The notes under the pieces: model-generated | The model's input: only the letters and a program-made list of their open reading frames with translations | Databases searched by the model: none | What the model was told of the DNA's origin: nothing | Position numbers and translations under genes: made by a program | Shown here: in pieces, positions 40,606 to 60,331 of the stretch | Layout of the letters: the number at the start of each line of letters is the position of its first letter | Position numbering within the stretch: position 1 is the first letter of the stretch | Origin: a virus | Taxonomy: Duplodnaviria > Caudoviricetes | Length of the DNA: 64,000 nt | Virus record (IMG/VR): IMGVR_UViG_3300042892_000699 | Reading direction: 5' to 3' (one strand)

Positions 40606-40912
40606 TAAAAGCGGCTATTATATGGGCTTCAGGACCGTAACCCTAGCTGACGATACTTGTGGTGTAGATTACTTTTATTGGAATCATACTGGAGGCATGA
40701 ACGGCAAGGGAGAATGGCGTACTGACAGCACCTGTCATAGTCATTGGGCTAATGTCTATTACTGGACCAAAGATAATCCAGAGCAGTGGGTCGATAGTGA
40801 TCCTCCTGTGAGATATAGAAAAGCACCAAAGTCTAATCCAGCATTGGCTATCGCTTGGAACAATGTCCAAGAAGCACTGCGTCAATATGAAATTGTGAAA
40901 GCACTAACATGA
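40562..40912 (+). CDS. Hypothetical Trp-rich protein
   Basis: WHHTADQQPDKSGYY N-terminus; ATGA overlap downstream. Confidence 0.55.
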   Translation: MKTSIWHHTADQQPDKSGYYMGFRTVTLADDTCGVDYFYWNHTGGMNGKGEWRTDSTCHSHWANVYYWTKDNPEQWVDSDPPVRYRKAPKSNPALAIAWNNVQEALRQYEIVKALT

Positions 40913-41109
40913 GACGACTTAAAAAAGAATTATGGCCATATAAGACCAAAGTTAATCTTTTGCACAGTACCAGAGAAGTTGATGAATGGTTAGGAAAGAC
41001 CTTGGGCAAATTCAAAGGTAAATGGAATGTAGTTCATCACAGTACTTCTATTGAATATTATTTTAAACAAGATCGAGATCTTACTATGTTTATGTTGAGG
41101 TGGTCATGA
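40909..41109 (+). CDS. Small paralog-family protein (QDRDLTMFMLRWS)
   Basis: ATGA overlaps on both sides. Confidence 0.65.
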   Translation: MRRLKKELWPYKTKVNLLHSTREVDEWLGKTLGKFKGKWNVVHHSTSIEYYFKQDRDLTMFMLRWS

Positions 41110-41381
41110 CCAGTATTAGTTCTATTGTCGGCGGCTTGAACATCGGTTCAGAACACGAACTGCGACCTATGAAAACGGGAGAAGCTGGCGGATGGGGTAT
41201 GAAATATACCTGGATTGAAATGGCTCGAACAGAAAGCACTCCCTTGGATCTAAATGAACAGGCACAGACTTGGTGCAGAGAACGATTTGGAAATAGTGGC
41301 AGTCGTTGGTTTGAAAAGAAAGACAAATTTTATTTTAAAGATGAAAAGGATTTGACCTTATTCATTCTGAGGTGGTCATGA
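41106..41381 (+). CDS. Small paralog-family protein (DEKDLTLFILRWS)
   Basis: Start moved to ATG 41106; WCRERFG...RW...FYFKDEKD. Confidence 0.65.
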   Translation: MTSISSIVGGLNIGSEHELRPMKTGEAGGWGMKYTWIEMARTESTPLDLNEQAQTWCRERFGNSGSRWFEKKDKFYFKDEKDLTLFILRWS

Positions 41382-41614
41382 GTGATACTGCTAGCTGGAT
41401 TACATTTGGTAAAGAACGTTATTGGCAACATCCAGACATGGAACAATGGTGCCACGAACATATAGGAACCGGTGGGTGGTCCTACCAAACTCCTAAAACT
41501 TGGGAAGGCATGAATGGTAAGATTTGGGTTATGCACAGCATGTTTGGCAACACTACTTTTGCATTTAAAGATTCTAAAGACTTAACTATGTTTTTGTTGA
41601 GGTGGGGCACATAA
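41378..41614 (+). CDS. Small paralog-family protein (DSKDLTMFLLRWG)
   Basis: Start moved to ATG 41378; WCHEHIG.GGW. Confidence 0.65.
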   Translation: MSDTASWITFGKERYWQHPDMEQWCHEHIGTGGWSYQTPKTWEGMNGKIWVMHSMFGNTTFAFKDSKDLTMFLLRWGT

Positions 41615-41835: not shown

Positions 41836-42218
41836 TGACTACAGAAAATATAAAACAATTTTGCCAACATCACAGTATTCGTGTACTTGATACAAACAAG
41901 CGGGCACATCGGTACAGCAAAGTCAATTTAAATTACTTTAGAGATCCTATGGATTTTAATCGAGTTTATGAAGATGTTATATATGATAGCGAACCGTTGT
42001 ATACTGTGGAAATTGCTGAAAGTGAATTAGAAAGAATTGCAGACTTCGAATCCGAGGTGTTTAACAACATGAAGAAGCAAGGGCATTACAGAATGTTTGA
42101 AACACTAATGGAGCAGAAAGAACGAGAGAGAGCACTGCGGGACAAATATCCAGCAGTAAAAAAAGCATACGAACAATATAGCCTAATGTTAAAACTGGCT
42201 GAAAGTGGAGAATTATGA
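41835..42218 (+). CDS. Hypothetical protein
   Basis: Start moved to ATG 41835; coupled to the cupin gene. Confidence 0.6.
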   Translation: MTTENIKQFCQHHSIRVLDTNKRAHRYSKVNLNYFRDPMDFNRVYEDVIYDSEPLYTVEIAESELERIADFESEVFNNMKKQGHYRMFETLMEQKERERALRDKYPAVKKAYEQYSLMLKLAESGEL

Positions 42219-42571
42219 GATTAGAAGGTTTTGTAGAAAAAGGTTGGGGTCACGAATTAATTTGGGCAACAAACGACAAGTATTGCGGAAAATTACTAAA
42301 GTTTAATACCGGTGCTAGATTTAGTATGCATTTCCATTCTGTAAAGGAAGAAACCTGGTATGTGTTAAGCGGTGAATTTCAAGTTAGATTTATTGATACG
42401 AAGACAGCGGATGAATATTTAGAAGTATTAAAACCAGGCTCTGTGTGGCATAATAATCCACTGGTACCACATCAACTGATTTGTCTCGAAGAAGGGACCA
42501 TTATCGAAGTTAGCACACCGGACAGTGTCGAAGACAATTATCGAGTTGCTAAAGGAGACAGTCAGAAATGA
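42215..42571 (+). CDS. Cupin-fold sugar isomerase-like protein
   Basis: EKGWGHE...SMHFHSVKEETWYVLSG...PHQL...IIEVST cupin metal motif. Confidence 0.75.
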   Translation: MRLEGFVEKGWGHELIWATNDKYCGKLLKFNTGARFSMHFHSVKEETWYVLSGEFQVRFIDTKTADEYLEVLKPGSVWHNNPLVPHQLICLEEGTIIEVSTPDSVEDNYRVAKGDSQK

Positions 42572-43356
42572 AAATTTTGATTACAGGGTATAAAGGTTTT
42601 ATTGGTCAAAATATGGTCAATGCACTAAATGACGAACACGAACTGTCTCTTTTTGAATGGGGAGAAGAACTTCCAGATTTTAGAGGCTTAGACTGGTGCA
42701 TACATTTAGGAGCAAATTCGTCTACTACTGAAATGGATGTAGACAAGATGCTAGATCAGAATTATGATTTTAGTAGACTTGTTATCAATCAATGTCAGGC
42801 AAACAATGTAAATTTGCAATATGCAAGTTCTGCAAGCGTATATGGACTAGGAAAAGAATTTAACGAAAATGCACCTGTTCATTTGCTAAGTCCATATGCA
42901 TGGAGCAAATATCTTTTTGAAAGATATGTAAGTGGATTTAGAGAAAAATGGTCTAACATAACAGTCCAGGGATTTAGGTATTTCAACGTGTATGGACCTC
43001 ATGAAGATCATAAAGGTGATCAGTCTAGCCCTCATCATAAGTTTACCAAGCAGGCAGAAGCTACCGGAGTTATCAAGCTATTTGAAAATTCTGAGAATTA
43101 CAAACGTGATTTTATTTCTGTACATGAAGTAGTTAGTATTCATAAAAAGTTTTTTAACGTAACTGAATCTGGTATTTGGAATGCCGGTACAGGTCGCGCT
43201 ACATCGTTTGATAACGTTGCTCGAACAATTGCAGAAGGAATGAAATGTAGAGTTGAATATATTCCTATGCCTGATAATGTTAAAGCACATTATCAAACAT
43301 ACACATGTGCTGATGTAACTAACCTAAGAAAGTATTATGACCCGAGTAATGGTTAA
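42568..43356 (+). CDS. hldD: ADP-L-glycero-D-manno-heptose 6-epimerase (extended SDR)
   Basis: ITGYKGFIG, HLGANSSTTE.D...M..NY, YASSASVYG, YAWSK, RYFNVYGPHE.HKG, RDFI, YQTYTCAD. Confidence 0.85.
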   Translation: MKILITGYKGFIGQNMVNALNDEHELSLFEWGEELPDFRGLDWCIHLGANSSTTEMDVDKMLDQNYDFSRLVINQCQANNVNLQYASSASVYGLGKEFNENAPVHLLSPYAWSKYLFERYVSGFREKWSNITVQGFRYFNVYGPHEDHKGDQSSPHHKFTKQAEATGVIKLFENSENYKRDFISVHEVVSIHKKFFNVTESGIWNAGTGRATSFDNVARTIAEGMKCRVEYIPMPDNVKAHYQTYTCADVTNLRKYYDPSNG

Positions 43357-43741
43357 CGGAACATTTGATATTCTGCATCGAGGTCATATTGAAATGCTCA
43401 ACTTTGCTAAAAGCAAAGGAGATGCGGTACTGGTTGTGATTGATACTGATCGTAGAGTGCAAGAGTTAAAAGGTGATGATCGTCCTATTAACAACCAAGA
43501 AGATCGTAAATTTCATTTAGAAAATTTAAAAGCAGTTGACAGTGTATTGTTTTTTGACAGCAAAGAACAACTTATAGAAATAATGAAAAGCTGGAAACCA
43601 GACGTGTATGTAAAAGGCAGCGACTGGAAAAAAGATAGACCTAGCACAGCAGAAGAATATTGTAAAGAAGTGATCTATTATGACAGAGTCGGCGAATACT
43701 CAACTACCAACACCATTCAGAATATTATTAATCGGGGATGA
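43337..43741 (+). CDS. Heptose-1-phosphate nucleotidyltransferase (HldE domain II / HldC-like)
   Basis: NGTFDILHRGH, D..V..LKG..RPIN....R...L, PDVYVKGSDW, C-terminal GEYSTT. Confidence 0.8.
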   Translation: MTRVMVNGTFDILHRGHIEMLNFAKSKGDAVLVVIDTDRRVQELKGDDRPINNQEDRKFHLENLKAVDSVLFFDSKEQLIEIMKSWKPDVYVKGSDWKKDRPSTAEEYCKEVIYYDRVGEYSTTNTIQNIINRG

Positions 43742-44447
43742 TTGCTTAGATGTTTATCAGTTTGGAACTGTTGACAGAATAAGTCCCGAGGCACCTGTTC
43801 CTGTATTCAAATATAGCTCTAAGGAAGAAAGAGCAGGCATGGCTCGTAATGTCAAACTCAATCTTGAAGCACTGGGCTGTGAAGTTACATACCTATGCGG
43901 AGAAACAAGTGTTAAGACCAGATTAATCGATTCCAAAAGTAAACAACACATTGTAAGAATTGACAATGATGTTAAATCTAATCCTATTGAATTTGCTTCG
44001 GCTATTCCTGCGATTTACGACGCAGTTGTGATCAGTGACTACAACAAAGGTACAGTTAGCTACGAATTAATCGAAGAACTCGTTGCTTTGAGCATACCAG
44101 TGTTCATAGACACTAAAAAGACTGACTTAGAACGTTTTCAAGGTGCATGGGTTAAGATTAATGAACTAGAGTATAGCAGATTAACAAGCGAGTGTGCTGG
44201 GTTAATTGTTACATTAGGTAGCAAAGGTGCTAGACTATGGGACGAAGTGCATCCAAGTAAACAAGTAGAAGTAAGTGATGTTTGTGGATGTGGTGATACT
44301 TTTTTGGCGGCACTAACCACTCAATACCTATATACAAATGATATAAAGAAAGCTATAATGTTTGCTAACGTTGCCGCAGGATTAACTGTACAACATTTAG
44401 GAAATTACGCACCATCATACGACGAGATTAGAAATGCCGGATATTGA
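43680..44447 (+). CDS. Heptose-7-phosphate kinase (HldE domain I / HldA-like, PfkB family)
   Basis: IGDDCLDVY..G.V.RISPEAPVPV, ISDYNKG, KINELE, DVCGCGDTF, AN.AAG..V. Confidence 0.85.
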   Translation: MTESANTQLPTPFRILLIGDDCLDVYQFGTVDRISPEAPVPVFKYSSKEERAGMARNVKLNLEALGCEVTYLCGETSVKTRLIDSKSKQHIVRIDNDVKSNPIEFASAIPAIYDAVVISDYNKGTVSYELIEELVALSIPVFIDTKKTDLERFQGAWVKINELEYSRLTSECAGLIVTLGSKGARLWDEVHPSKQVEVSDVCGCGDTFLAALTTQYLYTNDIKKAIMFANVAAGLTVQHLGNYAPSYDEIRNAGY

Positions 44448-45024
44448 TATCGACTTTGCTGATAGAACAAAAATTCTCAAAATTATCGAGCATGTACCAG
44501 CGGCTATTAAAGATAATGGAACTTTTAAAAAGCACAATACTGGCGTATATTGTCATTCTATCCCGTACAATTCCATAACTGATACTGCTAGCTTTGACTA
44601 TAAAGAAGCTGAAAACCGCGGGTATTTTAAGATTGACCTATTAAATGTTGGAATTTACAAAGATGTACGAGATGAAGAACATCTCTTAAAATTATTAAAT
44701 CAAGAACCACTATGGGATCTTTTACAACAGGACGATTTCACTAATATGTTGTTCCATGTGAACGGTCACGGATCAATTCTAAGACAGATGTTGCCAAATA
44801 GCATAAGTCAATTGGCTGCGGTATTAGCTATGATTAGACCGGCAAAACGCTATCTAATTGGACAAGACTGGAATACTGTAAACGCAGAAATTTGGCAAAA
44901 GCCTGCGGGTAATGAGTATTATTTTAAAAAAGCTCACGCTATAGCATATGCGGCAGCTATTGTAGTTCAAATGAACTTAATTTGCGAAGGTCTTACTTCC
45001 TCGCATTCCTTATTAGCTGAATAG
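44434..45024 (+). CDS. Miniature DnaE (Pol III alpha, family C)-like catalytic core
   Basis: MPDIDIDF, KHNTGV, GYFKIDLL, LAAVLAMIRP and YFKKAHAIAYA are collinear with DnaE motifs PDFDVDF, KHAGGV, GLVKFDFL, ALFRP and FNKSHSAAYA in only 196 aa. Confidence 0.75.
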   Translation: MPDIDIDFADRTKILKIIEHVPAAIKDNGTFKKHNTGVYCHSIPYNSITDTASFDYKEAENRGYFKIDLLNVGIYKDVRDEEHLLKLLNQEPLWDLLQQDDFTNMLFHVNGHGSILRQMLPNSISQLAAVLAMIRPAKRYLIGQDWNTVNAEIWQKPAGNEYYFKKAHAIAYAAAIVVQMNLICEGLTSSHSLLAE

Positions 45025-47232: not shown

Positions 47233-48697
47233 AAAAGAAAAACCACAAAAACCCAATTATGACTTTGAAGTGCAAAAGCTGTACTTGGAAATGTTTCTAA
47301 GTGATGCTGAGACGTTTGTACGTTGTCAAAATATTTTTGATCCCAAAAACTTTGATCAGCGACTGCAAGAAAGTGCAGAGTTCATTACAAAATATGTAGA
47401 TGAATACAAGGTAATGCCCGAGGCCAATATCGTCAACGCATCTACAAGAAGTCAGTATAACCCAGTTGCATTGCCCAGAGAAAACTATGAATGGTTAATG
47501 AATGAGTTTGAAAACTTTAGCAGACACAAAGGACTAGAAAGGGCAATTATCGAGTCTAGTGATTTGTTAGAGTCCGGAGACTACGGTCCAGTTGAAAAAC
47601 TAATTAAGGATGCTATACAGATATCTCTAAACAAAGATATGGGTACAGATTACTTTGAAGATCCCAGAGCACGTCTGACTAAACTTAAAGATGGCAATGG
47701 GCAGATCAGCACAGGATGGCCCAGCATTGATAAGAAATTATACGGCGGATTTAACCGAGGTGAACTGAATATCTTCTGTGCTGGATCAGGTGGCGGCAAG
47801 AGTTTGTTCTTAGCCAACTTAGGAGTGAACTGGGCACTAGCTGGACTTAATGTCTTATATCTTACATTTGAATTAGCCGAAGGCCTCGTAGGTATGCGAC
47901 TCGATAGTATGATGACAGGTATTACAACTCGAGAGATCTTTAAGAACATCGACGACGTTGAACTCAAGGTCAAGATGTTGGGCAAGAAGAGTGGTAACTT
48001 ACAGGTTAAGTATATGCCATCGGGCAAGAACTGTAACGATATCCGTGCCTACTTGAAAGAGTATCAGGTCAAGAAAGGTTGCAAGCCCGACGTTATTCTA
48101 ATTGACTATTTGGACTTGATGATGCCGTTGAGTGTTAAAGTTAGCCCAAGTGACCTGTTCGTTAAGGACAAGTATGTGTCGGAAGAAATTCGTAACTTGG
48201 CTATGGAAACACAATGTATCACAGTCACAGCGTCACAGTTAAACCGTAGTGCTGTTGAAGAAATTGAGTTTGATCACAGCCACATCTCGGGCGGATTGAG
48301 TAAGATTATGACGGCGGATAATGTTATCGGTATCTTTACCAGTCGTGCTATGAAAGAACGTGGGCGGTATCAAATACAGTTTATGAAGACACGTAGTTCT
48401 AGTGGTGTTGGGCAAAAAGTTGATCTAGAGTTTAATGTAGATACATTGCGTATTAGCGACCTAGGTGAAGATGAGCAAGAAGGCAGTTTTAATCAGCAAC
48501 GGCAACAGGGTGGCGGAAGTAGTGTCTATGCAGGCCTAAAAAGGACCAGCACAGTGTCAACTACTACTGATCCCGAAACTGGAGAAATTATTCCAATTGA
48601 TCCTACAAAAGGTGTAGCTGTTAGTAAAAATAAACACGCCAAGGGTGTTGCCGACATTAGAAGTATGTTGGCTAATTTAAATCCTGAAAAAGATTAA
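47225..48697 (+). CDS. gp41: Replicative helicase (DnaB / T4 gp41-like)
   Basis: STGWPSIDKKLYGGFNRGELNIFCAGSGGGKSL, IDYLDLM, ASQLNR, HISGG.SK...ADNV, MKTR. Confidence 0.9.
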   Translation: MNKKEKPQKPNYDFEVQKLYLEMFLSDAETFVRCQNIFDPKNFDQRLQESAEFITKYVDEYKVMPEANIVNASTRSQYNPVALPRENYEWLMNEFENFSRHKGLERAIIESSDLLESGDYGPVEKLIKDAIQISLNKDMGTDYFEDPRARLTKLKDGNGQISTGWPSIDKKLYGGFNRGELNIFCAGSGGGKSLFLANLGVNWALAGLNVLYLTFELAEGLVGMRLDSMMTGITTREIFKNIDDVELKVKMLGKKSGNLQVKYMPSGKNCNDIRAYLKEYQVKKGCKPDVILIDYLDLMMPLSVKVSPSDLFVKDKYVSEEIRNLAMETQCITVTASQLNRSAVEEIEFDHSHISGGLSKIMTADNVIGIFTSRAMKERGRYQIQFMKTRSSSGVGQKVDLEFNVDTLRISDLGEDEQEGSFNQQRQQGGGSSVYAGLKRTSTVSTTTDPETGEIIPIDPTKGVAVSKNKHAKGVADIRSMLANLNPEKD

Positions 48698-49254
48698 AAC
48701 CAATTTGCAATTTGTAAACGACCTGATTCAGCTATAACTTTGTGCCACTGGTCAATATCATCTGATCCAAATACAGTTTCGACTTCAGCAGGAGCATAAC
48801 TCCATGAACTCCATGAATGCCAAGGTTCTTTTCCTGCAACTTCCCCTTCAATGTGTCCGGGCAACCAACGTGTAAATCCTGCAACTACTCTGAAATGTTC
48901 AGGACCTTCTCCCTTGCTTATTGCGGCAAGAACTGAAACATCATGACTTACTCCAATTCGATTTGTAACTTTAGTAGTGTTAGATGTATACCAGTCTAGA
49001 CTATGTATTACATGTATTCTATTAGTTGACTCTTGACCGCCGTTGTATAAAGGCTGGTCTTGATCTGTATGTAAGCCTACATTCTGCATTACAGTTTGAA
49101 ACGTGATATCATTTGTAAATGGTTTATTGATCTGGAGTCCTATAGCCCCGGTTGCATCATGATCTAATATTAGCAATACTCCTTTACGAAGAATCGGTTC
49201 CTGTCGTCTAGGATGAGCTGCTAAAAGATAACCTCTATAATTTTGTTCAATCAT
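48694..49254 (-). CDS. YqgE/AlgH (DUF179) family protein
   Basis: LLAAHP...LILDHDATGAIGLQINKP, LYNGG, VAGFTRWLPGHIEGE...W. Confidence 0.8.
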   Translation of the reverse strand: MIEQNYRGYLLAAHPRRQEPILRKGVLLILDHDATGAIGLQINKPFTNDITFQTVMQNVGLHTDQDQPLYNGGQESTNRIHVIHSLDWYTSNTTKVTNRIGVSHDVSVLAAISKGEGPEHFRVVAGFTRWLPGHIEGEVAGKEPWHSWSSWSYAPAEVETVFGSDDIDQWHKVIAESGRLQIANWF

Positions 49255-50054: not shown

Positions 50055-50654
50055 ATGACCTTAGAAGAAATGATCCGTAAAACTGGCAAGCGCCAGGACT
50101 CATTCCAAATAATGATAGAGCATTTAAAAACTTGTGAAGAACCATTAATAATTGAAACAGGATGCGCTCGTCCTCCACATAAAGAGTGGGGAAGCGAAGA
50201 CGTAAGTTTTAAAGATGAAGGATTCAGCACAAGAATTTTTGATGCATTCATTAATCAAAGCGGCGGTGAATTACACTCCGTTGACATCAATCCAGAACAC
50301 GTAGAATATGCACTTACTCAAGTAAGCGATCGAGTACAAATCCATTGCAGTGACAGCGTTGAATTTCTCTGGCAAGCAAATCAGAACTTAACTGAAACAG
50401 AGAACTATGTAGATCTGTTATACTTAGATAGTTATGATTACGAACCAGAAGACCCATGGCCCAGTGCTGCACATCACATTAAAGAACTTGCGGCAATTAT
50501 GTCTAGACTGCGGCCTGGTTCACTTGTTGCTGTAGATGATAATTTTATTGTCAATGGGCAACGTCAAGGCAAAGGTGCATACATTTATGATTTTATGCAG
50601 AGCATCGGCAAACCTTTAGTACATGAAGGTTATCAATACATTTGGAGATTTTAA
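50055..50654 (+). CDS. Class I SAM-dependent methyltransferase
   Basis: IIETG, SVDIN, DSVEFL, DLLYLDS, AVDD motifs. Confidence 0.75.
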   Translation: MTLEEMIRKTGKRQDSFQIMIEHLKTCEEPLIIETGCARPPHKEWGSEDVSFKDEGFSTRIFDAFINQSGGELHSVDINPEHVEYALTQVSDRVQIHCSDSVEFLWQANQNLTETENYVDLLYLDSYDYEPEDPWPSAAHHIKELAAIMSRLRPGSLVAVDDNFIVNGQRQGKGAYIYDFMQSIGKPLVHEGYQYIWRF

Positions 50655-51490
50655 TGAAAGTATATGATTGTTTTCCATTCTTTAACGAATTAGACGTTTT
50701 AGAAATTCGATTGAAAGAACTGTGGGACGTAGTTGACGTATTTGTTTTAGCAGAATCAAATCTAAGTCACAGCGGTAAACCCAAAGAATATATCTTTGAA
50801 AATAACAAAGAGAGATTTAGTCAGTGGATGAGTAAGATTCGTCATATAAAAGTAGAAGACATGCCCGAGACTGAAGACTCGTGGGTCCGTGAACGTTTCC
50901 AGCGGGTTTGTCTTGACCGAGGCCTATATGATATGGAACCCGAAGACATTGTTATTGTCAGTGACTGTGACGAAATTACTCGTGCTGAGATCGTTACTTT
51001 GATAAAAGAAGATGAGAATAATTATGACAAATACATCTTGAACATTCCGCAATTTCAATATAAACTAAACTACATGAAAGTTTATAACGTTTCAAAAAAT
51101 GCCAACATCATGGTAACAAGAGGTCGTTGTTATTCAAACGCACAACAAGAAAGAGAATGGACATTCTTTTGGAACGCAAAGCCAGAAAACACAGTATTTG
51201 TGGATCATGGCGGCTGGCATTTCACTTACCTAGGTGATGATCAACATGCGATTACCAAAATTCAAAACTTTGCTCACACAGAAACTGATACACCTGATAT
51301 GATCAAGCGTCACAATATCAAATGGTTTATACAAAACAAATACGGACATCATGGTCCCAATGACAGCGAAAGATATGAGTGGGTTCAACTAGATGATTAC
51401 TTTCCCGAATGTGTTACTAGTAATGTTGAACAATACAAAGATATGATTTTAGAAGGCGCAGTATTACGTGCCACAGATATGTATAGATAA
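50654..51490 (+). CDS. GT17-like (beta-1,4-N-acetylglucosaminyltransferase-type) glycosyltransferase
   Basis: VYDCFPFFNELDVLEIRL.EL...VD.FV..ES...SG.PK, W.RE.FQR, SDCDEI, GGWHFTY; start at 50654 (TAATG). Confidence 0.8.
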   Translation: MKVYDCFPFFNELDVLEIRLKELWDVVDVFVLAESNLSHSGKPKEYIFENNKERFSQWMSKIRHIKVEDMPETEDSWVRERFQRVCLDRGLYDMEPEDIVIVSDCDEITRAEIVTLIKEDENNYDKYILNIPQFQYKLNYMKVYNVSKNANIMVTRGRCYSNAQQEREWTFFWNAKPENTVFVDHGGWHFTYLGDDQHAITKIQNFAHTETDTPDMIKRHNIKWFIQNKYGHHGPNDSERYEWVQLDDYFPECVTSNVEQYKDMILEGAVLRATDMYR

Positions 51491-51500
51491 GAAAGAAATT

Positions 51501-52277
51501 ATGACAACATTTTCACATTCAGGTACCATGGGCGACACATTGTGTAGCATGGTTGCAGTTAAAATATTAGGCGGTGGTGATGTTTACCTTCGTCTAGGTA
51601 ATCTTAAAAAAATGATTCAAGAAAAGTTAGGGTGGCCTGATGCAGGACGTCACAACGATAAGATGAGACAAGTAGACTTTGATCAAATGGAAGAGTTTAT
51701 GTTGCATCAACCGTACATTAATAGTTTTAAAGTATGGAACGGTGAAGATATTGATTACGAACTTGAAGATGCAGCATTGCATTTAGAGACAGGTTTCTTA
51801 CCTCGTAATTTTAGTAATCAACATGCACTAGCCAATGGCATTGATCACAAATATCATTTCAGACAACTTCAAATAGATCCATGGATGGAATGTCGTAATC
51901 CTATTAAGATTCCAGGACGTCCTATTGTAGTCCATCGTAACATGAATTACCAAGACGGAAATGAAAAAGACAGCAAAACATGGCAAAACGTTTGTCAAAG
52001 AGGATTAACTGACCAGGGCGTATTTGTGGGCAGTGAAGAAGAACATGCGGCCTTTGAAGAAATATTCAAAGTATGGGTACCTCATTATAGAACAGAAAAC
52101 CTAATGGAACTTGCTCGAGTTATTCAAGGCAGCGAATACTTTGTTACCAGCATGGGCGGTCCTAGTGCAGTTGCACTGGCGTTGGGTAAGACTATGATGT
52201 TAGAAGTTCGTAAAAACGAACCATTCGAACGTTTAGAAATCAACTATCCTTTTAGATTAAACATTCAATATTTCTAA
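51501..52277 (+). CDS. GT9-like (ADP-heptose heptosyltransferase-like, GT-B fold) glycosyltransferase
   Basis: N-terminal SGTMGDTL; C-terminal LMELARVIQGSEYFVTSMGGPSAVALALGK, compare GT9 L.elaali..a..f.g.DSGp.HlA.A.g. Confidence 0.55.
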   Translation: MTTFSHSGTMGDTLCSMVAVKILGGGDVYLRLGNLKKMIQEKLGWPDAGRHNDKMRQVDFDQMEEFMLHQPYINSFKVWNGEDIDYELEDAALHLETGFLPRNFSNQHALANGIDHKYHFRQLQIDPWMECRNPIKIPGRPIVVHRNMNYQDGNEKDSKTWQNVCQRGLTDQGVFVGSEEEHAAFEEIFKVWVPHYRTENLMELARVIQGSEYFVTSMGGPSAVALALGKTMMLEVRKNEPFERLEINYPFRLNIQYF

Positions 52278-52278
52278 A

Positions 52279-53025
52279 ATGCGTGTAGCCTTAATCAGTG
52301 GCGGTCATCCTAGATTTACCGGAGACTTTATTGCCTTAATGCATCAGTTAACTGGCTTTGAGTCTGCGGATCTCTATCTAAATTTTTGGAACAGTAACTG
52401 GGCTTCAACTGAAGCAGAAGGCAGTGCTAGAATAGAATCAGTGTTATTGCCAAACTATCGTTTAGCAAAATTAAAAATAACAGAACAACCCGCATGGGAA
52501 CTTCCTCCACACACATTGCCTCATCCTCCTGCTACACCCGAAAATATTCGTTGGTGGTATCAACGTAGGATAGGCATGTGGCAATCCTTGTACATGGCTT
52601 TTGATTTAATCGATCAAGATTATGATCTTGTGATTAGATTTAGACCAGACGGTATGATTAACACAGTACTTGATTTAAGATCTTTAAATGTACAAGATGA
52701 TATTGTTATACCTAAGAACGGTTGTGGATGGAATCACTGGCCCGTTAATGATCAATTTGCCGTCGGAACTTACAACAGTATGAAATTGTACACTGATATA
52801 GGTAGACAATATAATAAGTTGGTAGTAGAATCAGATCCACAATGGGAACACAACGGACACGGAAACTGGTCAGGAGAACACATACTTGGCCACTATATAA
52901 ATAAAAATAATATAAAATATAGATTAGAAAACTTTGATCACGTCTTAACCACAAGAGGTCGTTCTAAGTTTACTGACAAACATTATCACTTGCCTGTTAC
53001 GCAAGATCCAACAACCACATTATGA
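52279..53025 (+). CDS. Putative glycosyltransferase (xAhhhSGxPRF...YDLVIRxRPD family), paralog 1
   Basis: MRVALISGGHPRF, YDLVIRFRPD, NDQFAVG, E..L..Y. Confidence 0.55.
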   Translation: MRVALISGGHPRFTGDFIALMHQLTGFESADLYLNFWNSNWASTEAEGSARIESVLLPNYRLAKLKITEQPAWELPPHTLPHPPATPENIRWWYQRRIGMWQSLYMAFDLIDQDYDLVIRFRPDGMINTVLDLRSLNVQDDIVIPKNGCGWNHWPVNDQFAVGTYNSMKLYTDIGRQYNKLVVESDPQWEHNGHGNWSGEHILGHYINKNNIKYRLENFDHVLTTRGRSKFTDKHYHLPVTQDPTTTL

Positions 53026-54398
53026 ATAAACTTGTAATCTTTGACTTAGACGGCGTACTGATAGAAAGTAGAGAACTACACTATCATAGTCTAAATGCCG
53101 CATTAGAATCTATTGATAAAAAATATATAATCAATAGAGACGAACACCTTAGTGTATATGACGGACTCAATACCACTAAGAAATTAAAACTATTATCCGA
53201 AACAAAAGGTTTGCCCACAGAGTTTCATGATCTTATTTGGCGGAAGAAACAAGAAGCAACATTTGATCTAATTCGTAAATTTGATTTTGATTACAAATTG
53301 ATCGATATATTTGTTAAACTGAAAAAGCAAGGTTATCTAATTGCAGTGGCCAGTAATAGCATACGTGAAACTGTTAAGTTAAGTTTGCTTAAAATAGGAG
53401 TCATGGAATATGTTGATTGCTATGTAAGCAATCAGGATGTTACTTTACCTAAACCGTATCCAGAGATGTACTGGCAATGTATGACCATGTGTAATGCACT
53501 GCCCCGCAATACATTGATCATCGAAGACAGTCACATTGGTAGACAAGGTGCATTGGACAGTGGTGGAAACTTACTGGCTGTAGAAGACTCACACGATGTG
53601 ACCTGGTCAAAAATTAATAATAAATTATCACATATGAACTCACAAACAATTAAAAATAACATTCCTTGGAAAGACAGTAAACTAAATGTTTTGATCCCTA
53701 TGGCAGGCGCAGGCAGTAGATTTGCACAGATGGGTTACACATTTCCAAAACCACTGATCGAAGTCAACGGCAAGCCCATGATTCAAGTGGTGGTAGAAAA
53801 TTTAAACATTGAAGCACACTTTATTTTCATTGTACAAAAAGAACACTATGAAAAATATAACCTCAAATATCTGCTCAACTTAATTGCACCGGGCTGTGAC
53901 ATTGTGCAGGTTGAAGGTGTAACTGAAGGTGCAGCCTGTAGCACACTACTGGCCAAAGAATATATCAATACTGATGCTCCATTAGTTATGGCCAACAGTG
54001 ACCAGTATGTTGAGTGGAACAGTAACGAATGTATGTATGCGTTTACCGCAGATGAGATTGATGGAGGTATCGTTACATTTGAAGCAAGTCATCCCAAATG
54101 GAGTTACGCTAAACTAGGTGATGATGGTTTTGTTAGCGAAGTAGCAGAAAAGAAAGTCATCAGTAATGAAGCTACAGTAGGCATATACTATTGGAAGAAA
54201 GGTAGTGACTACGTTAAGTATGCAGAAGATATGATTGCAAAAGACATTCGTGTTAACAATGAGTTTTATGTTTGCCCTGTATTCAACCAGGCTATTGAAG
54301 CAGGTAAGAAAATTAAAGTTAAGAAAATTCAAAAGATGTGGGGTATAGGCACTCCGGAAGATCTAAATCATTTCTTAGCAAATCATAAAGAAGATTAA
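53022..54398 (+). CDS. HAD phosphatase fused to a sugar-nucleotidyltransferase-like domain
   Basis: FDLDGVL, VASNS, PKPYPE, IEDS.IG; then IPMAGAGSRF...PKPLI, T.GAA.S.L, FYVCPVFN, GTPEDL. Confidence 0.85.
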   Translation: MNKLVIFDLDGVLIESRELHYHSLNAALESIDKKYIINRDEHLSVYDGLNTTKKLKLLSETKGLPTEFHDLIWRKKQEATFDLIRKFDFDYKLIDIFVKLKKQGYLIAVASNSIRETVKLSLLKIGVMEYVDCYVSNQDVTLPKPYPEMYWQCMTMCNALPRNTLIIEDSHIGRQGALDSGGNLLAVEDSHDVTWSKINNKLSHMNSQTIKNNIPWKDSKLNVLIPMAGAGSRFAQMGYTFPKPLIEVNGKPMIQVVVENLNIEAHFIFIVQKEHYEKYNLKYLLNLIAPGCDIVQVEGVTEGAACSTLLAKEYINTDAPLVMANSDQYVEWNSNECMYAFTADEIDGGIVTFEASHPKWSYAKLGDDGFVSEVAEKKVISNEATVGIYYWKKGSDYVKYAEDMIAKDIRVNNEFYVCPVFNQAIEAGKKIKVKKIQKMWGIGTPEDLNHFLANHKED

Positions 54399-54401
54399 AG
54401 T

Positions 54402-55082
54402 ATGAGCAAATATATTCTATTTGACATCGGTGCAAATCAGGGTCAAGACAGTTTAGACAGAACACGTAACGACACCTCAGTAGAGACCTGGGCATTTGAA
54501 CCTATTCCCGAATTGTTTAGTAGAATAGACACTGCAAGAAAAAATGGGTACACATGGCAATTTTATCATCGTGCTGAACCAGCTGGCGTTAGCTACGAAG
54601 ATCGTTATCATGTATTTCCTTTGGCAATTAGTGACTATGACGGTGAGTCAACATTTTATGTTGCCGATCGTGATCCAGTAGGTGACTGGGGCGCTAGCAG
54701 TCTATATCCATTTGTTGACGAAGTAAGTCAGACCTGGCCCGGGCGGCGAGACCTAGTTACCACAAGAACTGTCACAGTCAAAGTTTCTAGATTTGATACG
54801 TGGTATAAATCACAGGGCCTGAACTTGGAAAAGATCGATTACTTTCATTGTGATACACAGGGCAGTGACCTACGTGTGCTCAAAGGCATGGGCGACTATG
54901 TACGCCTAATTCAAGAAGGTGTTGTGGAATGTGCTCGGGATGAAGCAGGGAAACTCTACAAAGAAAACCACACAGTGGCCGAGATGAAAGATTTCCTTTC
55001 TGAACATGGATTTGCTGTGTTTCACGAACAATCAAACGACCAGTGGTCAAATGAACTCAACTTATATTTTAGAAAGAAATGA
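54402..55082 (+). CDS. FkbM-family methyltransferase
   Basis: FDIGAN.G, AFEP.P, AISDYDG, ID..H.DTQGSDL.VL.G. Confidence 0.8.
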   Translation: MSKYILFDIGANQGQDSLDRTRNDTSVETWAFEPIPELFSRIDTARKNGYTWQFYHRAEPAGVSYEDRYHVFPLAISDYDGESTFYVADRDPVGDWGASSLYPFVDEVSQTWPGRRDLVTTRTVTVKVSRFDTWYKSQGLNLEKIDYFHCDTQGSDLRVLKGMGDYVRLIQEGVVECARDEAGKLYKENHTVAEMKDFLSEHGFAVFHEQSNDQWSNELNLYFRKK

Positions 55083-55528
55083 AACTGATAGCACATCGTG
55101 GACTGATCAATGGTCCTAACCGTTCATTAGAAAATCAACCACAGCAGATTAAAAATAGTCTAGCTCTGGGCTACGATTGTGAAATTGACCTATGGGTATT
55201 TGACGGCAGACTTTATCTAGGACACGATGGTCCACAGTACAACATTACTAGAGAATTTTTAGATCAACCGGGTCTGTGGATACACGCCAAACACATAGAC
55301 GCACTTGACTGGTTGTTGGGCAAAGATTTGAATTATTTCTGGCATCAAGAAGATCATTACACACTGACCAGTAAAAACTACATTTGGGCCTATCCAGGAT
55401 ATCCTGTAACTGGGAGAAGTGTACAGGTCATGCCCGAAACTGCGGATCCCACACTGAGTAATCTAGACTGGAAATGTCATGCTATATGCAGTGACTGGAT
55501 TCTAAAGATTCAAGCCCAGCGCCCGTAA
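55079..55528 (+). CDS. Glycerophosphodiester phosphodiesterase-like (short)
   Basis: LIAHRG...EN......L..GYDCEIDLW...LYLGHD, WIHAK, ICSDW. Confidence 0.7.
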   Translation: MKLIAHRGLINGPNRSLENQPQQIKNSLALGYDCEIDLWVFDGRLYLGHDGPQYNITREFLDQPGLWIHAKHIDALDWLLGKDLNYFWHQEDHYTLTSKNYIWAYPGYPVTGRSVQVMPETADPTLSNLDWKCHAICSDWILKIQAQRP

Positions 55529-56277
55529 TCGCTACGGTAAGCATCTCGTTCAACAGCGCCAAACTTACGCAACACTACTTCATAGCTGTCTTTATTATGG
55601 TTAGTCAGTCCCTGTGCTGCTATGTGAAATGCCAACATGGTTTCTGGATGATAGATCAAACCTAGTTTATGATGATACTCAACTATGTACTGAGCTAGAT
55701 CACAGTAAGTGGACATTGCACTGCTCTGCCCCAGTGCCATCATGTCGTTGGTCTTGTGCCCATAGCCGTGTACTTCATTGCTGGGAGTGATAACAGTTTG
55801 AGGATTTTGTTTTAGATATTCTAGACAATGTTCTAGATCCAAGGGTGCAGCCAAGCCTAGATCCGGGCGTGTGCGTATGACCAAATCATAGGACTGACCC
55901 GTGGCCTGTTCATGTGCTCGTCGCTGTAGATCACATTCCCTTACGCTGGTATACATGCCCCACATTCGTTCCACGCTGGTTTCCCCTGCTTTGTGGTGTA
56001 CCCGAGGCGGAGGATAACTGCTTCGATTCTCTATGCTTAGATTAATCAACTGGTGCCCTGCAGGCAGATAGCTGTTCAAGCGACTGTGTGCTGTTTCATA
56101 TTCCATGTGACGCCAACTGGGCGCTACAACATCTACTCCACGATGTTCTTCACATTGACTGTCCTGCCACAGCCAAACAAACCAGTCCACTGTGGTATAG
56201 CCCCGGAGATTTTCCAGAAGCAGATCGAATTCTCTACAGAATCTAGGTTCTCCGGGTAATAACAATGCTACTCTCAT
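55510..56277 (-). CDS. Putative glycosyltransferase, paralog 2
   Basis: MRVALLLPGEPRF, YDLVIRTRPD, NDMMALG, HPETML; ATGA overlap gives start 56277. Confidence 0.55.
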   Translation of the reverse strand: MRVALLLPGEPRFCREFDLLLENLRGYTTVDWFVWLWQDSQCEEHRGVDVVAPSWRHMEYETAHSRLNSYLPAGHQLINLSIENRSSYPPPRVHHKAGETSVERMWGMYTSVRECDLQRRAHEQATGQSYDLVIRTRPDLGLAAPLDLEHCLEYLKQNPQTVITPSNEVHGYGHKTNDMMALGQSSAMSTYCDLAQYIVEYHHKLGLIYHPETMLAFHIAAQGLTNHNKDSYEVVLRKFGAVERDAYRSDYGRWA

Positions 56278-57050
56278 GCCCAACTTCCGAAATCGCTAAT
56301 ATATTCTGTTTCACTTATCCGTTGACCCAACTGTCTAATGTCAATGCGGAATCCGGCAGTGCGTATTCCCATCTGCTGAGATTTCAAATAATCTCCCAGT
56401 ATGGTCTCGGGATGAAATATTTTACCCTGTGCTATATACTGTTCAATCGAATGTAAACAGTCAGCATAACAACTCATGGCAGCACCCCGTCCCACAGCCA
56501 TAAGATCACTGACTGCATGTCCATAGCCCGCACGAGTATTATCGGGCATGATCACTGCACGATCATCATGCCCTAGGATTTCAGCACAGCGAGCTAGATC
56601 CAAGGTATTGTGTAGCATTAGATCGGGACGTATCTTCAGTACTAGGTCATAGGGTTGTCCGGTGCTGTGTTCGTGTGCTTGACGCATTTGATCTGTGCGC
56701 CAGTTACCCCAGAACATTTTCCACCCGTTGGCCACGTTGGTAACACCGTCATCACGACCACTGTGAGGGAATGCCAGCTGACTTTGATCCACTAGTTCTA
56801 AGTGAGCCAAACGATGCCCACCCTGTAGATTCAGCTGAATACGTTCCTGAGCCCACTCCACTGTGGGATTGAGCCACCCGGGTGCCACCAACTCACTGCC
56901 CTGACTGCGCCAATAGTCACTGCGACTTTGGCTGCGTGACCAAACGGACACAAACCAATCAGCAGAATCAAAGCCCACAAGCCTAGATTGAAACACTGTC
57001 AATTCCCTGCAGAACCTAGGTTCACCGCTGACTAATATGGCCACCTTCAT
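56274..57050 (-). CDS. Putative glycosyltransferase, paralog 3
   Basis: MKVAILVSGEPRF, YDLVLKIRPD, SDLMAVG, HPETIL. Confidence 0.55.
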   Translation of the reverse strand: MKVAILVSGEPRFCRELTVFQSRLVGFDSADWFVSVWSRSQSRSDYWRSQGSELVAPGWLNPTVEWAQERIQLNLQGGHRLAHLELVDQSQLAFPHSGRDDGVTNVANGWKMFWGNWRTDQMRQAHEHSTGQPYDLVLKIRPDLMLHNTLDLARCAEILGHDDRAVIMPDNTRAGYGHAVSDLMAVGRGAAMSCYADCLHSIEQYIAQGKIFHPETILGDYLKSQQMGIRTAGFRIDIRQLGQRISETEYISDFGSWA

Positions 57051-57074
57051 CGGTCAAGAGCCCAACCCAGCAGC

Positions 57075-57088
57075 GCGAAGCGCGAAGC
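57075..57088. repeat. Tandem GCGAAGC heptamers (mini-hairpin motif)
   Basis: GCGAAGC GCGAAGC read directly in the intergenic. Confidence 0.7.
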
Positions 57089-57130
57089 GGTAAAAAAGAG
57101 ATTTTTATACACCTTTATCTACCCACTTAA

Positions 57131-57694
57131 TCACACTAGATCCAGAACAACGTCACGTAGATTCTTACGTGCCACACGAGTCCTTAAATCTGTCGAGATC
57201 AAATCCAGTACACTGCCCAGATCATTACCGTTGACCTTAAACGACAGTCCGCCTGCTTCAAGCCACTGTGAACAATTGTCCGGACGATCATCTACTAATA
57301 TATCCCCCACTGTGCAGTGTTTATGCTTGTCCCACGAATGCGGTCCAAAGTGTACGGGTACGTCGGGAAAATGTAGTTGTGCCCATAACACCTTGTCATA
57401 GAATGCCCAGTGTACATCATCTTTGGCGGGCACAGCAGTGAGAAACAGCAAATTCCAACCCAAGATGTCTCTATATTGACGTGCTAGATGTACAAGCTCG
57501 CCCACCCTGGGCATAAGTGGTAGATCACGGTAAAAACGTGTTTGAGTCTTGATCAGTTCCCATTCTTCCACAGTGTTGCGATAGTGTGTGAGTGAATCGG
57601 GATTGCGCATTGGTCGACCTAAAAAGCTAGAAGCAGCTGATTCCCAATCAGCTACGACTCCGTCCATGTCTAGATAAAAGGTATTTTTAGTCAT
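57131..57694 (-). CDS. 5'(3')-deoxyribonucleotidase (HAD, NT5C-like)
   Basis: YLDMDGVVADW, FLTA, DKVLW, ILVDDRPDNC..W...GG. Confidence 0.8.
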   Translation of the reverse strand: MTKNTFYLDMDGVVADWESAASSFLGRPMRNPDSLTHYRNTVEEWELIKTQTRFYRDLPLMPRVGELVHLARQYRDILGWNLLFLTAVPAKDDVHWAFYDKVLWAQLHFPDVPVHFGPHSWDKHKHCTVGDILVDDRPDNCSQWLEAGGLSFKVNGNDLGSVLDLISTDLRTRVARKNLRDVVLDLV

Positions 57695-57706
57695 AAGTTA
57701 TACTTG

Positions 57707-58144
57707 TTAGTTATAGATGTAATTGACAGTGTCCGCATTGACTGACAGCACGCCAGCACCATTGCGTAGGTGAAACACACGAGCCATGTCAGTGGGTGGT
57801 GATAGAGTGACAAACTGTGTTAGAGTGGGTTGCACAACTCGTAGATGATCACGAGTCTGTAGAATCAACTGCCTCCCAGAACCAGCACTGTAGCTCCATA
57901 TGGTATAGAACACTGCTATGTGTGGAGTCATCATGTTGGGATGTGTTAGTTCCAGTGTGTTTTTGGGAACTGAATCTTTGTAAACAGCACATACAGCAGC
58001 CATGGGCTTACCATAGAGATCTAACAGTACAAATATATTACTGCGTTCACTTACTCTGAATTCAATGGGTATTTCGGGACGCACGGGATCGTCCTTGACT
58101 ATGGCGCAAAGTGGGTCAGTGAGGGTGGTTATACAGTGTAGCAT
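57707..58144 (-). CDS. Hypothetical protein, possible GNAT-like fold
   Basis: DDPVRP, AVFYTIWSY..GSGRQLI, VTLSP.T.MA..FHLRNGA. Confidence 0.4.
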   Translation of the reverse strand: MLHCITTLTDPLCAIVKDDPVRPEIPIEFRVSERSNIFVLLDLYGKPMAAVCAVYKDSVPKNTLELTHPNMMTPHIAVFYTIWSYSAGSGRQLILQTRDHLRVVQPTLTQFVTLSPPTDMARVFHLRNGAGVLSVNADTVNYIYN

Positions 58145-58164
58145 GAGTGTGCGAGTTTAAAATA

Positions 58165-58193
58165 ATTATATACGTACTTATGCTATAAGTCAA
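58165..58193 (-). promoter_or_regulatory. sigma70 promoter TTGACT-17-TATAAT
   Basis: Read on the reverse complement. Confidence 0.75.
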
Positions 58194-58464
58194 GAATTTC
58201 TATATATAGAGGAAAAAATTAGCGCAAAAAATTTTCAAAATCCGAACAGCGTGGGTACCGAAAGTTTTAGCGGCTCAAATTTTTGCCGCGCAGTTAAAAA
58301 AGGGGGAAGAGATCTCGGCCCCTGGTGATCTACTCTAACACTGGGGGTGAAAAGTTTGGAGATTTTTTGAGAGAATTTTTGAGAACTTTTGGCATGCTTG
58401 CAAGTTAGTGCTTGCTAACATGTGCAAGCACTACCTGACCACCCCACCATGGCCGGCCACCCCC

Positions 58465-58761
58465 TCAGGCCTGGACCACCTGGTCCTCATCAGCCAGCAA
58501 GCCCAACTCCGAATCACCGTAGCAGTCAAAGCCCTCTGCTTCTAACTCAGCAATGGCTTCGTTCATGAGACTCTCTACTACACGAACCTTGTCCACGACC
58601 CGTAGTTCTTTGTGGCGTGTAGCCCGCTTAGTACCCTGCTTGTACACTAGCGTATAGTGCTCAGCACAGTAGCTACGGCCCTCTAGTGCGGCGTGTGTAC
58701 ATGTAGGTGTGTGAGCGTGTGCGCCAATGTACTGGCATGTGTGTTGTGTAGTGTTAGTCAT
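58465..58761 (-). CDS. GcrA C-terminal-like zinc-binding protein
   Basis: HTCQYIG...TPTC...EGRSYCAEHY..VY compared with GcrA C..PIG....FC......PYC..H...AY. Confidence 0.5.
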   Translation of the reverse strand: MTNTTQHTCQYIGAHAHTPTCTHAALEGRSYCAEHYTLVYKQGTKRATRHKELRVVDKVRVVESLMNEAIAELEAEGFDCYGDSELGLLADEDQVVQA

Positions 58762-59853: not shown

Positions 59854-59879
59854 GTTGTTTCCTTAGTGTTAAAGATTGT

Positions 59880-59908
59880 ATTATAGCAGGGAATTGCTTC
59901 CCCGTCAA
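59880..59908 (-). promoter_or_regulatory. Early sigma70 promoter TTGACG-17-TATAAT
   Basis: Reverse complement; AAGGA RBS downstream. Confidence 0.85.
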
Positions 59909-59915
59909 TGACTAA

Positions 59916-60266: not shown

Positions 60267-60299
60267 TTAAAAGCTCCTTAGTGCGTTGTTGATGTATGT

Positions 60300-60328: not shown

Positions 60329-60331
60329 CTG

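Follow-up and report, generated by a model that had tools for sequence, protein, structure and literature searches.

What can a phage make with a cupin, an epimerase, a nucleotidyltransferase and a sugar kinase that are encoded back to back, and would it depend on its host to do so? The question is raised by a stretch of 64,000 nucleotides (nt) from a Caudoviricetes genome (IMG/VR record IMGVR_UViG_3300042892_000699; the whole of this stretch is referred to as the window), in which positions 42215-44447 are occupied by four overlapping open reading frames (ORFs) on the + strand, called the cassette in what follows. An earlier note on this DNA had taken the four genes for an ADP-heptose biosynthesis operon, and the ORF list of the window returns them exactly as described there. 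ADP-heptose synthesis is a textbook pathway of lipopolysaccharide (LPS) formation, and GmhA, one of its enzymes, has been studied as an antibiotic-adjuvant target. The cassette consists of the following genes:

42215..42571, +: cupin, 118 amino acids (aa), single-domain, metal-binding; candidate sedoheptulose-7-phosphate isomerase (GmhA analogue), the rival assignment being a sugar-nucleotide epimerase
42568..43356, +: HldD-like short-chain dehydrogenase/reductase (SDR), ADP-glycero-manno-heptose 6-epimerase-like, 262 aa, versus 310 in Escherichia coli
43337..43741, +: HldC-like nucleotidyltransferase, heptose-1-phosphate adenylyltransferase-like, 134 aa
43680..44447, +: HldA-like PfkB kinase, heptose-7-phosphate 1-kinase-like, 255 aa, versus approximately 315

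Our proposal is that these genes are a phage copy of the pathway for nucleotide-activated heptose, in which the cupin would act as a sedoheptulose-7-phosphate isomerase of the phosphomannose isomerase (PMI) type, and we give this proposal about an even chance of being right.

The kinase, the nucleotidyltransferase and the epimerase

Pfam places the four ORFs in Cupin_2, Epimerase, CTP_transf_like and PfkB, and the motifs that the earlier note had pointed out are all found in the translations. The epimerase has GYKGFIG, of the Rossmann type, and YxxxK; the nucleotidyltransferase has HRGH along with GEYSTT at its C terminus; and GCGDT, the anion-hole motif of PfkB proteins, is present in the kinase. 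When the proteins are compared with the curated NCBIfam models, heptose families come out best in every case. The epimerase scores 230 bits on TIGR02197 (heptose_epim; cut-off 274.6), the next family being GalE, at 54 bits, and its best solved relative is E. coli HldD (1EQ2; E 3.5e-52). Residues S116, Y140, K144 and K178 (E. coli numbering) are all kept in the 1EQ2 alignment; all four are catalytic in HldD, K178 being the second base specific to it. A C6 epimerase requires a stereocentre at C6, which a heptose has and a hexose does not. The best family for the nucleotidyltransferase is TIGR02199 (rfaE_dom_II, 113.6 bits, cut-off 181.5) and its best solved relative is the Burkholderia HldC (5X9Q; E 7e-20, versus 5e-15 for TagD), while the kinase is best matched by TIGR02198 (rfaE_dom_I, 153 bits, cut-off 345), with ribokinase at 45 bits, and matches the Burkholderia HldA (4E84) with an E of 2.5e-24, the N-terminal VDRISPEAPVPV motif being the same in both, letter for letter. 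In the PHROG collection, the nucleotidyltransferase belongs with phrog_7878 and the kinase with phrog_8133 (E 1e-91). Homology of the three proteins to the heptose enzymes is evident from these matches, and with both the best families and the best solved relatives (1EQ2, 4E84, 5X9Q) pointing the same way, the core claim of the earlier note, that most of a pathway to activated heptose is encoded by the phage, is borne out. Judged from these sequences, the module very probably makes a nucleotide-activated heptose.

Two features of these proteins count against the heptose assignment. All three fall under the NCBI equivalog cut-offs (274.6, 181.5 and 345 bits), and both the epimerase and the kinase are shortened, each being 50-60 residues shorter than its bacterial counterparts. 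The epimerase lacks the C-terminal 20 residues as well as a stretch of approximately 25 behind the first beta-alpha unit, and its score remains under 274.6 because of these missing parts; the kinase is approximately 60 residues under the length of the model, with GCGDT kept. Because the scores lie under the equivalog cut-offs, the substrate and the nucleotide specificity are what we infer from these matches. The low scores are also the ground for a reading of the three genes as enzymes for non-heptose substrates, that is, as a TagD-type glycerol-3-phosphate cytidylyltransferase, a ribokinase-like sugar kinase and a hexose epimerase, a reading to which the TagD score of the nucleotidyltransferase (TIGR01518, 75.8 bits) and its C-terminal STT motif, common to TagD, may be added. 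This is very improbable in our view. The TagD score is well under the cut-off of that family (165.4), and the nucleotidyltransferase has heptose-type enzymes as its neighbours; the heptose families score higher throughout (114 versus 76, 153 versus 45, and 230 versus 54 bits); the kinase has the N-terminal motif of the Burkholderia HldA, the epimerase has kept the HldD-specific K178, and the three enzymes co-occur as a set, as they do in the bacterial pathway. The earlier note had named non-heptose substrates as what would refute it, and at the level of scores the heptose families stand well above glycerol-3-phosphate cytidylyltransferase, ribokinase and GalE, so that a TagD-type enzyme or a hexose epimerase appears unlikely.

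A candidate for the first enzyme: the cupin

With these three enzymes in place, the pathway would run as follows. The cupin, which resembles phosphomannose and lyxose isomerases, would convert sedoheptulose-7-phosphate to D-glycero-D-manno-heptose-7-phosphate in a metal-dependent reaction, replacing the SIS-fold GmhA; the HldA-like kinase would phosphorylate C1; a HAD phosphatase, either the NT5C-like protein encoded at 57131-57694 or else a host enzyme, would remove the 7-phosphate; the HldC-like enzyme would add AMP, resulting in ADP-D-glycero-beta-D-manno-heptose; and the HldD-like SDR would epimerise C6, resulting in the L-glycero form, presumably passed to a glycosyltransferase of the phage or of the host. 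The assignment of the cupin to the first step is suggested by two arguments, one being that the isomerase is the sole step left without an enzyme and the cupin the sole conserved gene left without an assignment, and the other that the GmhA reaction has a six-carbon counterpart, from fructose-6-phosphate to mannose-6-phosphate, and that the cupin is similar to the enzymes of this counterpart.

As to the protein itself, it matches Cupin_2 with 32.9 bits and phrog_7851 with an E of 3e-41, and its AlphaFold (AF2) model is a confident single cupin barrel, with a mean confidence (pLDDT) of 91. In an alignment of 28 phage members, H39, H41, E46 and H86 make up a full 3His-1Glu metal site, accompanied by several conserved basic residues; K9, G10, W11, G12, E14, K26, H41, K44, W48, H86, Q87, E98, D103, D107, R110, D115 and Q117 are invariant, and H39 and E46 nearly so. 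The isomerase families are recognized in many of these close relatives, MannoseP_isomer (PF01050) in 16 of the 28 at E<0.01 and D-lyxose isomerase in 13, and the atlas clusters that hold this cupin have been named, automatically, mannose-6-phosphate isomerase or lyxose isomerase. Natural fusions are also known among the representative clusters, joining the cupin to HldC (P0197), to a minimal HAD (P0131, P0135, P0160) or to an NT5C-type HAD (P0126), and the last of these relatives, at 31 bits, is above the PF01050 threshold. The family is a very large one, numbering more than 4,589 homologs that are similar in length, the top 120 of which are 74-86% identical to the protein of the window, and with 3,236 representatives with E<1e-3 at the level of 50% clusters. 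Part of it goes under another name, as the 'cysteine dioxygenase' of cyanophage records is this cupin.

The evidence from the cupin also has its other side. The cupin of the window scores 19.6 bits on PF01050, under the threshold of 23.6, and matches to the WbuC family (TIGR04366), at 17-31 bits versus a cut-off of 42, recur among its relatives, all of them too weak to place it with the WbuC/CapF-type cupins. Several comparisons do not separate an isomerase from an epimerase: Foldseek with the cupin model returned generic cupins only, the cupin profile run against the PDB sequences matched only those of the oxalate-decarboxylase type, and the matches of the cupins to the WbuC and GMP_PMI models of NCBIfam were all weak. 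No significant sequence match was found to solved PMIs, WbuC or CapF, and a literature search returned no paper tying a cupin to sedoheptulose-7-phosphate isomerase or GmhA.

Distribution of the cassette in phages, Archaea and Bacteria

In most cases the cupin is found with other genes of the heptose pathway. In a scan of IMG/VR anchored on the kinase, 80 loci with 53-80% identity were obtained, and many of them lie on contigs of 280-364 kb; across 82 kinase-anchored phage loci, the cupin, hldC, hldA and usually hldD are found together in at least six gene orders, the largest class having the order cupin-gmhB-hldC-hldA-hldD. A scan anchored on the cupin returned at least 598 stretches, of which 45 are evaluable loci, flanked on either side by no less than 3 kb of sequence, and 36 of these (80%) have both hldA and hldC within 4 kb of the cupin. 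Altogether, the same cassette is present in hundreds of IMG/VR contigs. In GenBank phages, tblastn matches were obtained in 35 records with the kinase and in 63 with the epimerase, mostly of T4-like cyanophages (P-SSM2, P-SSM5, S-SSM7, S-CAM1, S-CAM3, S-SM2, P-TIM68 and S-T4). Genome notes list such genes as host-derived heptose/LPS genes (PMC7378029), and rfaE has been noted in pelagimyophages (PMC7029224); our literature search found no functional study of phage-encoded ADP-heptose. The cassette is a known, widespread and already annotated phage gene set, and the window is an ordinary member of it.

Outside of phages the cupin family is rare, with 23 loci in the species-genome collection, several of which are evidently phage contigs binned into metagenome-assembled genomes (MAGs); one example is a cupin labelled as belonging to a Cytophagia MAG (P0094, locus L086), which sits on a T4-like phage contig. 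Woesearchaeota and Methanosarcinales MAGs, in turn, possess a five-gene operon, cupin-hldD-hldA-gmhB-hldC. Five cupin-bearing MAGs, three of them with the full operon, were searched for GmhA, and a GmhA-like gene was recognized in one, at 109 bits, under the cut-off.

The association is not without exceptions, and these weigh against a role of the cupin that is tied to heptose. Among the 45 loci, four have hldC only, one has hldD and a phosphatase, and four have no hld gene, one of the last four having a weak NT5C-like match (27% identity). In one genome rated 100% complete (G016, locus L139; IMGVR_UViG_3300032236_000747, 354,680 bp), a cupin 80% identical to that of the window is present without any PfkB kinase, among unrelated neighbours (a DUF454 protein, a phosphatase-like protein, S-adenosylhomocysteinase and dCMP deaminase), and so the cupin can persist without the rest of the cassette. 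Variation is also seen within the synteny class of the window, defined in the cupin-anchored maps by the same upstream genes and a polymerase fragment downstream: the loci with flanks of at least 3 kb comprise eight four-gene cassettes and five without hldD, and among the loci with shorter flanks there are two with the cupin only (L150, L157) and one with cupin-NT5C-hldC. From these variants, the hld genes appear to come and go at this site while the cupin stays. In Bryobacteraceae and in Marinoscillum pacificum, cupins of 50-57% identity are found in other polysaccharide clusters without hld genes, next to a gene of the UDP-GlcNAc 2-epimerase family and to GT4, GT2 and GT87 genes.

Such observations could also be explained if the function of the cupin were unrelated to heptose, as a general isomerase of phosphomannose or of another sugar, or as a non-sugar enzyme, residing at a recombination hotspot, with the three hld genes topping up the pathway of the host. 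The cupin is indeed found much more widely than the hld genes and is better conserved than they are (top hits at 74-86% identity, versus 53-80% for the kinase), it stands alone in the complete genome of G016 and between unrelated genes in T4-like contigs, and within the synteny class of the window it is the constant element, hldD, hldC and hldA being variable. We still find this explanation improbable, given that hldA and hldC lie within 4 kb in 80% of the evaluable cupin loci, in varied orders and in distant phages and Archaea, and that fusions of three independent kinds tie the cupin to enzymes of the pathway.

GmhA and the phosphatase step

Is GmhA available to these phages by any other route? 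The earlier note had placed both gmhA and gmhB outside the window, and this agrees with our searches: no SIS-family gene is present among the ORFs of the window that were scanned, which were not all of its ORFs, and tblastn with a GmhB-like phage protein (from locus L083) returned no match in the window. A caution against reading too much into this is that for this phage the search covered 64 kb of a genome assumed to be approximately 376 kb. Relatives with longer sequences point in the same direction, as no match to SIS_2 was found in the genomes of five related jumbo phages (one of them 79% complete and the other four 93-100%), and no match to TIGR00441 (GmhA) in the complete genomes of P-SSM2 and S-CAM3, both of which have the cupin. 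We also considered whether GmhA and the cupin are distributed in a complementary manner; a 735-kb phage (LR756501) and a phage fragment (MT838225) have a kinase homolog and neither GmhA nor the cupin, and these cases are uninformative. The LPS of cyanobacteria has been reported to be without heptose and Kdo (PMC4515613), and for this reason cyanophages probably cannot borrow GmhA from their hosts.

The phosphatase slot is filled across the phage loci by three unrelated types of HAD, GmhB-like, NT5C-like and minimal, suggesting that the logic of the pathway is kept while its parts are swapped. A GmhB-like HAD-IIIA is part of the cassette in 29 phage loci (TIGR01656, 85 bits in G002). An NT5C-like HAD of approximately 161 aa is found inside the cassette in four loci (L050, L070, L033, L061). 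The minimal HAD, of 102-114 aa, has the motifs DIDGTIC, TAR, GKP and IDDK. The window has a candidate of its own, at a distance from the cassette and absent from the earlier note:

57131..57694, -: NT5C-like HAD phosphatase, 13 kb from the cassette; candidate heptose-1,7-bisphosphate 7-phosphatase (GmhB analogue)

This protein matches Pfam NT5C with 29.1 bits and has kept the catalytic motifs DMDGV and DD; it shares 43-48% identity with the HADs encoded within the cassettes of L050, L070, L061 and L033, and its gene adjoins a second sugar gene cluster. The minimal HAD has in turn been a source of confusion. The 'phosphoheptose isomerase' genes of cyanophages (PSSM2_311 of P-SSM2, L001:6719-7063; gp150 of S-CAM3, L002:6749-7069) encode no SIS domain and possess the four HAD motifs, with only weak HAD matches of PSSM2_311 in Pfam, and this cyanophage 'phosphoheptose isomerase' looks like a mis-annotated minimal HAD phosphatase. 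In the light of these data, the suggestion of the earlier note that the phage perhaps draws on GmhA and GmhB of the host is not the best fit, the comparative evidence instead suggesting a cupin as the isomerase and a HAD of another subfamily as the phosphatase.

It has to be asked, nevertheless, how a phage that does use the host GmhA would employ a cupin. In such a case, with heptose-7-phosphate supplied by the host, the cupin would have its place further down the pathway, where it would epimerise or isomerise the nucleotide sugar in a metal-dependent manner, along with the adjacent HldD-like SDR. CapF (an SDR with a cupin) and the heptose-modifying cupin/SDR pairs of Campylobacter would be the models, and a non-canonical heptose the product, the 'cupin-modified variant' for which the earlier note had allowed. 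In the window the cupin gene does run 4 nt into the SDR gene, and the cupin adjoins an SDR at many loci, its bacterial homologs adjoin genes of the UDP-GlcNAc 2-epimerase family in glycan clusters, its similarity to WbuC, while weak, recurs, and the presence of a cupin without a kinase in G016 would fit the remodelling of a sugar nucleotide made by the host. The chemistry is less accommodating, as the keto intermediate of HldD stays enzyme-bound, and a cassette enzyme that would release the keto intermediate required by such an epimerase is not known. The gene arrangements also argue the other way, with the cupin and the SDR at opposite ends in the largest class, with 14 of the 45 evaluable cupin loci having no SDR within 4 kb while they do possess hldC, alone or along with hldA, and with the cupin fused to HAD sugar-phosphate phosphatases, not to SDRs. 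At the level of sequence there is no significant match to WbuC or CapF. Finally, the pathway would be left without an entry in cyanophages, whose hosts have LPS without heptose (PMC4515613), and in archaeal MAGs without GmhA. On balance we consider a late-acting cupin unlikely, if by no means negligible. The mere presence of an SDR was tried as a discriminator and found not informative, as every large relative has SDR epimerase-family genes somewhere. The cupin without a kinase, the loci with few or no hld genes, the bacterial homologs in other polysaccharide clusters and the WbuC similarity are compatible with a first-step isomerase that also tops up a host pathway, and equally with an enzyme remodelling a host-made sugar nucleotide.

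Returning to the cupin as the first-step isomerase, what departs from the characterised pathway is the lack of GmhA and GmhB, which are likely replaced by the cupin and by HADs of other subfamilies. A broader version of this proposal, to which we give slightly less than even confidence, is that an isomerase unrelated to GmhA and a set of interchangeable HADs provide phages and DPANN Archaea with a self-sufficient ADP-heptose pathway, and that GT9-like transferases, sometimes with a carbamoyltransferase, use its product to decorate the virion fibres or the surface of the infected cell. If this is true, a second, unrelated enzyme for the first step would make a clear case of non-orthologous displacement, and two mis-annotations propagated in phage genomes, 'phosphoheptose isomerase' for the minimal HAD and 'cysteine dioxygenase' for the cupin, would be corrected. 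The cassette is very common in phages of lakes and oceans, and its cupin family amounts to thousands of near-identical proteins in aquatic viruses. Finding the heptose acceptor, be it the fibres, the host envelope or another structure, would explain a widespread auxiliary function. The value of the window itself is mainly that of a freshwater jumbo-phage example, with the cassette at a hotspot of gain and loss.

Possible uses of the sugar

The earlier note had suggested virion glycosylation or remodelling of the host LPS as possible uses. As to the acceptor, the clues come from the relatives. A protein of approximately 310 aa resembling glycosyltransferase family 9 (GT9, the heptosyltransferase family) is encoded in four of five large jumbo relatives, in one case above the Pfam threshold and in the others with weaker scores, and these proteins are homologous to PSSM2_307 of P-SSM2 and gp154 of S-CAM3 (family members in L090-L093, at L001:2690-3802, at L002:2817-3956 and at L094:11148-12119). 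In cyanophages and jumbo relatives the gene often adjoins one for a NodU-like carbamoyltransferase, a pairing that may point to a heptose glycan with carbamoyl groups. At several loci the cassette has giant genes (2,100-2,700 codons) at its flanks, so that large proteins of the virion or the surface may be suspected as targets of heptosylation. Within the window, tblastn returned no homolog of the GT9-like proteins, no heptosyltransferase candidate was found, and the only glycosyltransferase candidates are part of a separate cluster, at approximately 50-57 kb. This second sugar-related cluster spans 50055-57050, contains two genes of unknown function, and includes the following:

50055-50654: Methyltransf_24 protein
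50642-51490: GT17-like glycosyltransferase
53022-54398: beta-phosphoglucomutase-like HAD fused to a sugar-1-phosphate nucleotidyltransferase
54402-55082: FkbM methyltransferase
52279-53025 (+), 55510-56283 (-) and 56274-57050 (-): three paralogs with weak phrog_13607 matches

Another activated sugar may be produced and transferred by this second cluster; alternatively, the cluster may draw on the heptose. The interval between a helicase gene and this cluster contains, at 48694-49254 (-), the gene of an AlgH-like protein (DUF179, 88.9 bits in Pfam).

The phage and the setting of the cassette

That the window is phage DNA is evident from a large terminase, a tail sheath protein of 984 aa, a primase and helicases (DnaB-like and other), and a UvsX-like recombinase is encoded as well. 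With a terminase that shares 55.6% identity with its counterpart in the Pseudomonas jumbo phage PA5oct and 51% with that of the Sinorhizobium phage Phosso, we read the source as an uncultured freshwater jumbo myophage, a distant relative of PA5oct; megablast against GenBank phages returned no match. The cluster of the cupin at 90% identity is found on 78 contigs, the longest of 376 kb, and a phage genome of about that size is assumed here. The stretch is present at full length in 24 metagenome runs of lake water or freshwater, from 23 studies, all of them flagged as possible sources of this DNA and none of them RNA.

The cassette is embedded in a long co-directional, densely packed gene array, with overlaps of 4, 20 and 62 nt between its successive ORFs, of 4 nt with the ORF upstream and of 14 nt with the ORF downstream. 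The longest of these overlaps is due to the N-terminal 12 residues of the kinase, and as residues 1-255 are matched in the nearest relatives (L003, L004, L005, L082), the annotated start of the kinase is probably genuine. In a consensus scan of 38-49.5 kb, no + strand terminator was found, and the counts of promoter-like and terminator-like sites were about those expected by chance, with no excess of promoters. Just upstream, at 40909-41614, three overlapping consecutive small ORFs (66, 93 and 80 aa) share near-identical tails (DLTMFMLRWS, DLTLFILRWS, DLTMFLLRWGT) and form a tandem paralog family. Directly 3' of the kinase, at 44434-45024, an ORF of 196 aa starting with MPDIDIDFADR matches phrog_11778, 'DNA polymerase', and appears to be a separate fragment resembling DNA polymerase III alpha, which would make the polymerase gene a split one; the fragment has the same position in approximately 20 related contigs. 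Toward the end of the window, at 56000-64000, the G+C content increases from approximately 0.37-0.43 to 0.48-0.49 and most ORFs turn to the - strand, suggesting a compositionally distinct module, to which the NT5C-like HAD and a phrog_1250 protein (58981-59853) belong.

Comparison with known systems

Four known systems can be compared with the cassette. One is the C-terminal cupin of CapF, from the UDP-L-FucNAc pathway of Staphylococcus aureus, along with WbuC. Here the likeness is in a metal cupin working beside an SDR and in the weak matches to the WbuC model. Unlike CapF, the phage cupin is not fused to its SDR and has no sequence match to CapF, its WbuC scores are 17-31 bits where 42 are required, and no 4,6-dehydratase is present to make a 4-keto substrate. 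Another is the type II, archaeal cupin PMI (PF01050; the Thermococcus enzyme, 7ZVY and 7ZVM), along with the D-lyxose isomerases. The small single cupin fold, the 3His-1Glu site and an N-terminal (K/R)xWG are shared with these enzymes, and the chemistry of the type II PMI, from a ketose phosphate to an aldose phosphate of manno configuration, is the six-carbon analogue of the GmhA reaction; unlike them, the cupin of the window is under the Pfam threshold and has no significant match to solved PMIs, and its activity would be on seven-carbon sugars.

A third system is the bacterial pathway to ADP-L-glycero-beta-D-manno-heptose (GmhA; HldE, or HldA and HldC; GmhB; HldD). The HldA, HldC and HldD homologs of the phage have their catalytic motifs intact, the kinase and the adenylyltransferase are split as they are in Burkholderia, and the genes are set as a translationally coupled group. 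In contrast to the bacterial pathway, neither a SIS-type GmhA nor a HAD-IIIA GmhB was found among the sequences of the window that were searched, a cupin of 118 aa accompanies the set, the kinase and the epimerase are shorter, and all three enzymes score below the cut-offs and are carried by a jumbo phage of the lytic type, not by a cell.

The fourth system is that of the cyanomyoviruses (PSSM2_309-313 of P-SSM2, T4-GC 304-308; gp148-151 of S-CAM3; also S-SSM7, S-CAM1, S-SM2 and P-TIM68). The P-SSM2 block starts with the GT9-like gene and continues with those of the NodU-like carbamoyltransferase, the nucleotidyltransferase, the kinase, the 'phosphoheptose isomerase' and the 'cysteine dioxygenase' (the cupin); the epimerase gene follows on the opposite strand, the whole block adjoins a tail-fibre gene, and S-CAM3 is arranged likewise. 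The cyanomyovirus set differs from that of the window in the addition of the minimal HAD, the NodU-like carbamoyltransferase and the GT9-like gene, in its place next to tail-fibre genes and in the opposite strand of the epimerase, whereas the cassette of the window lies between small genes of unknown function and replication genes, without minimal HAD, NodU-like or GT9-like neighbours. Yet the same four families are clustered in both, belonging to the same PHROGs (7851, 540, 7878 and 8133), and the cyanomyovirus proteins are 37-46% identical to those of the window.

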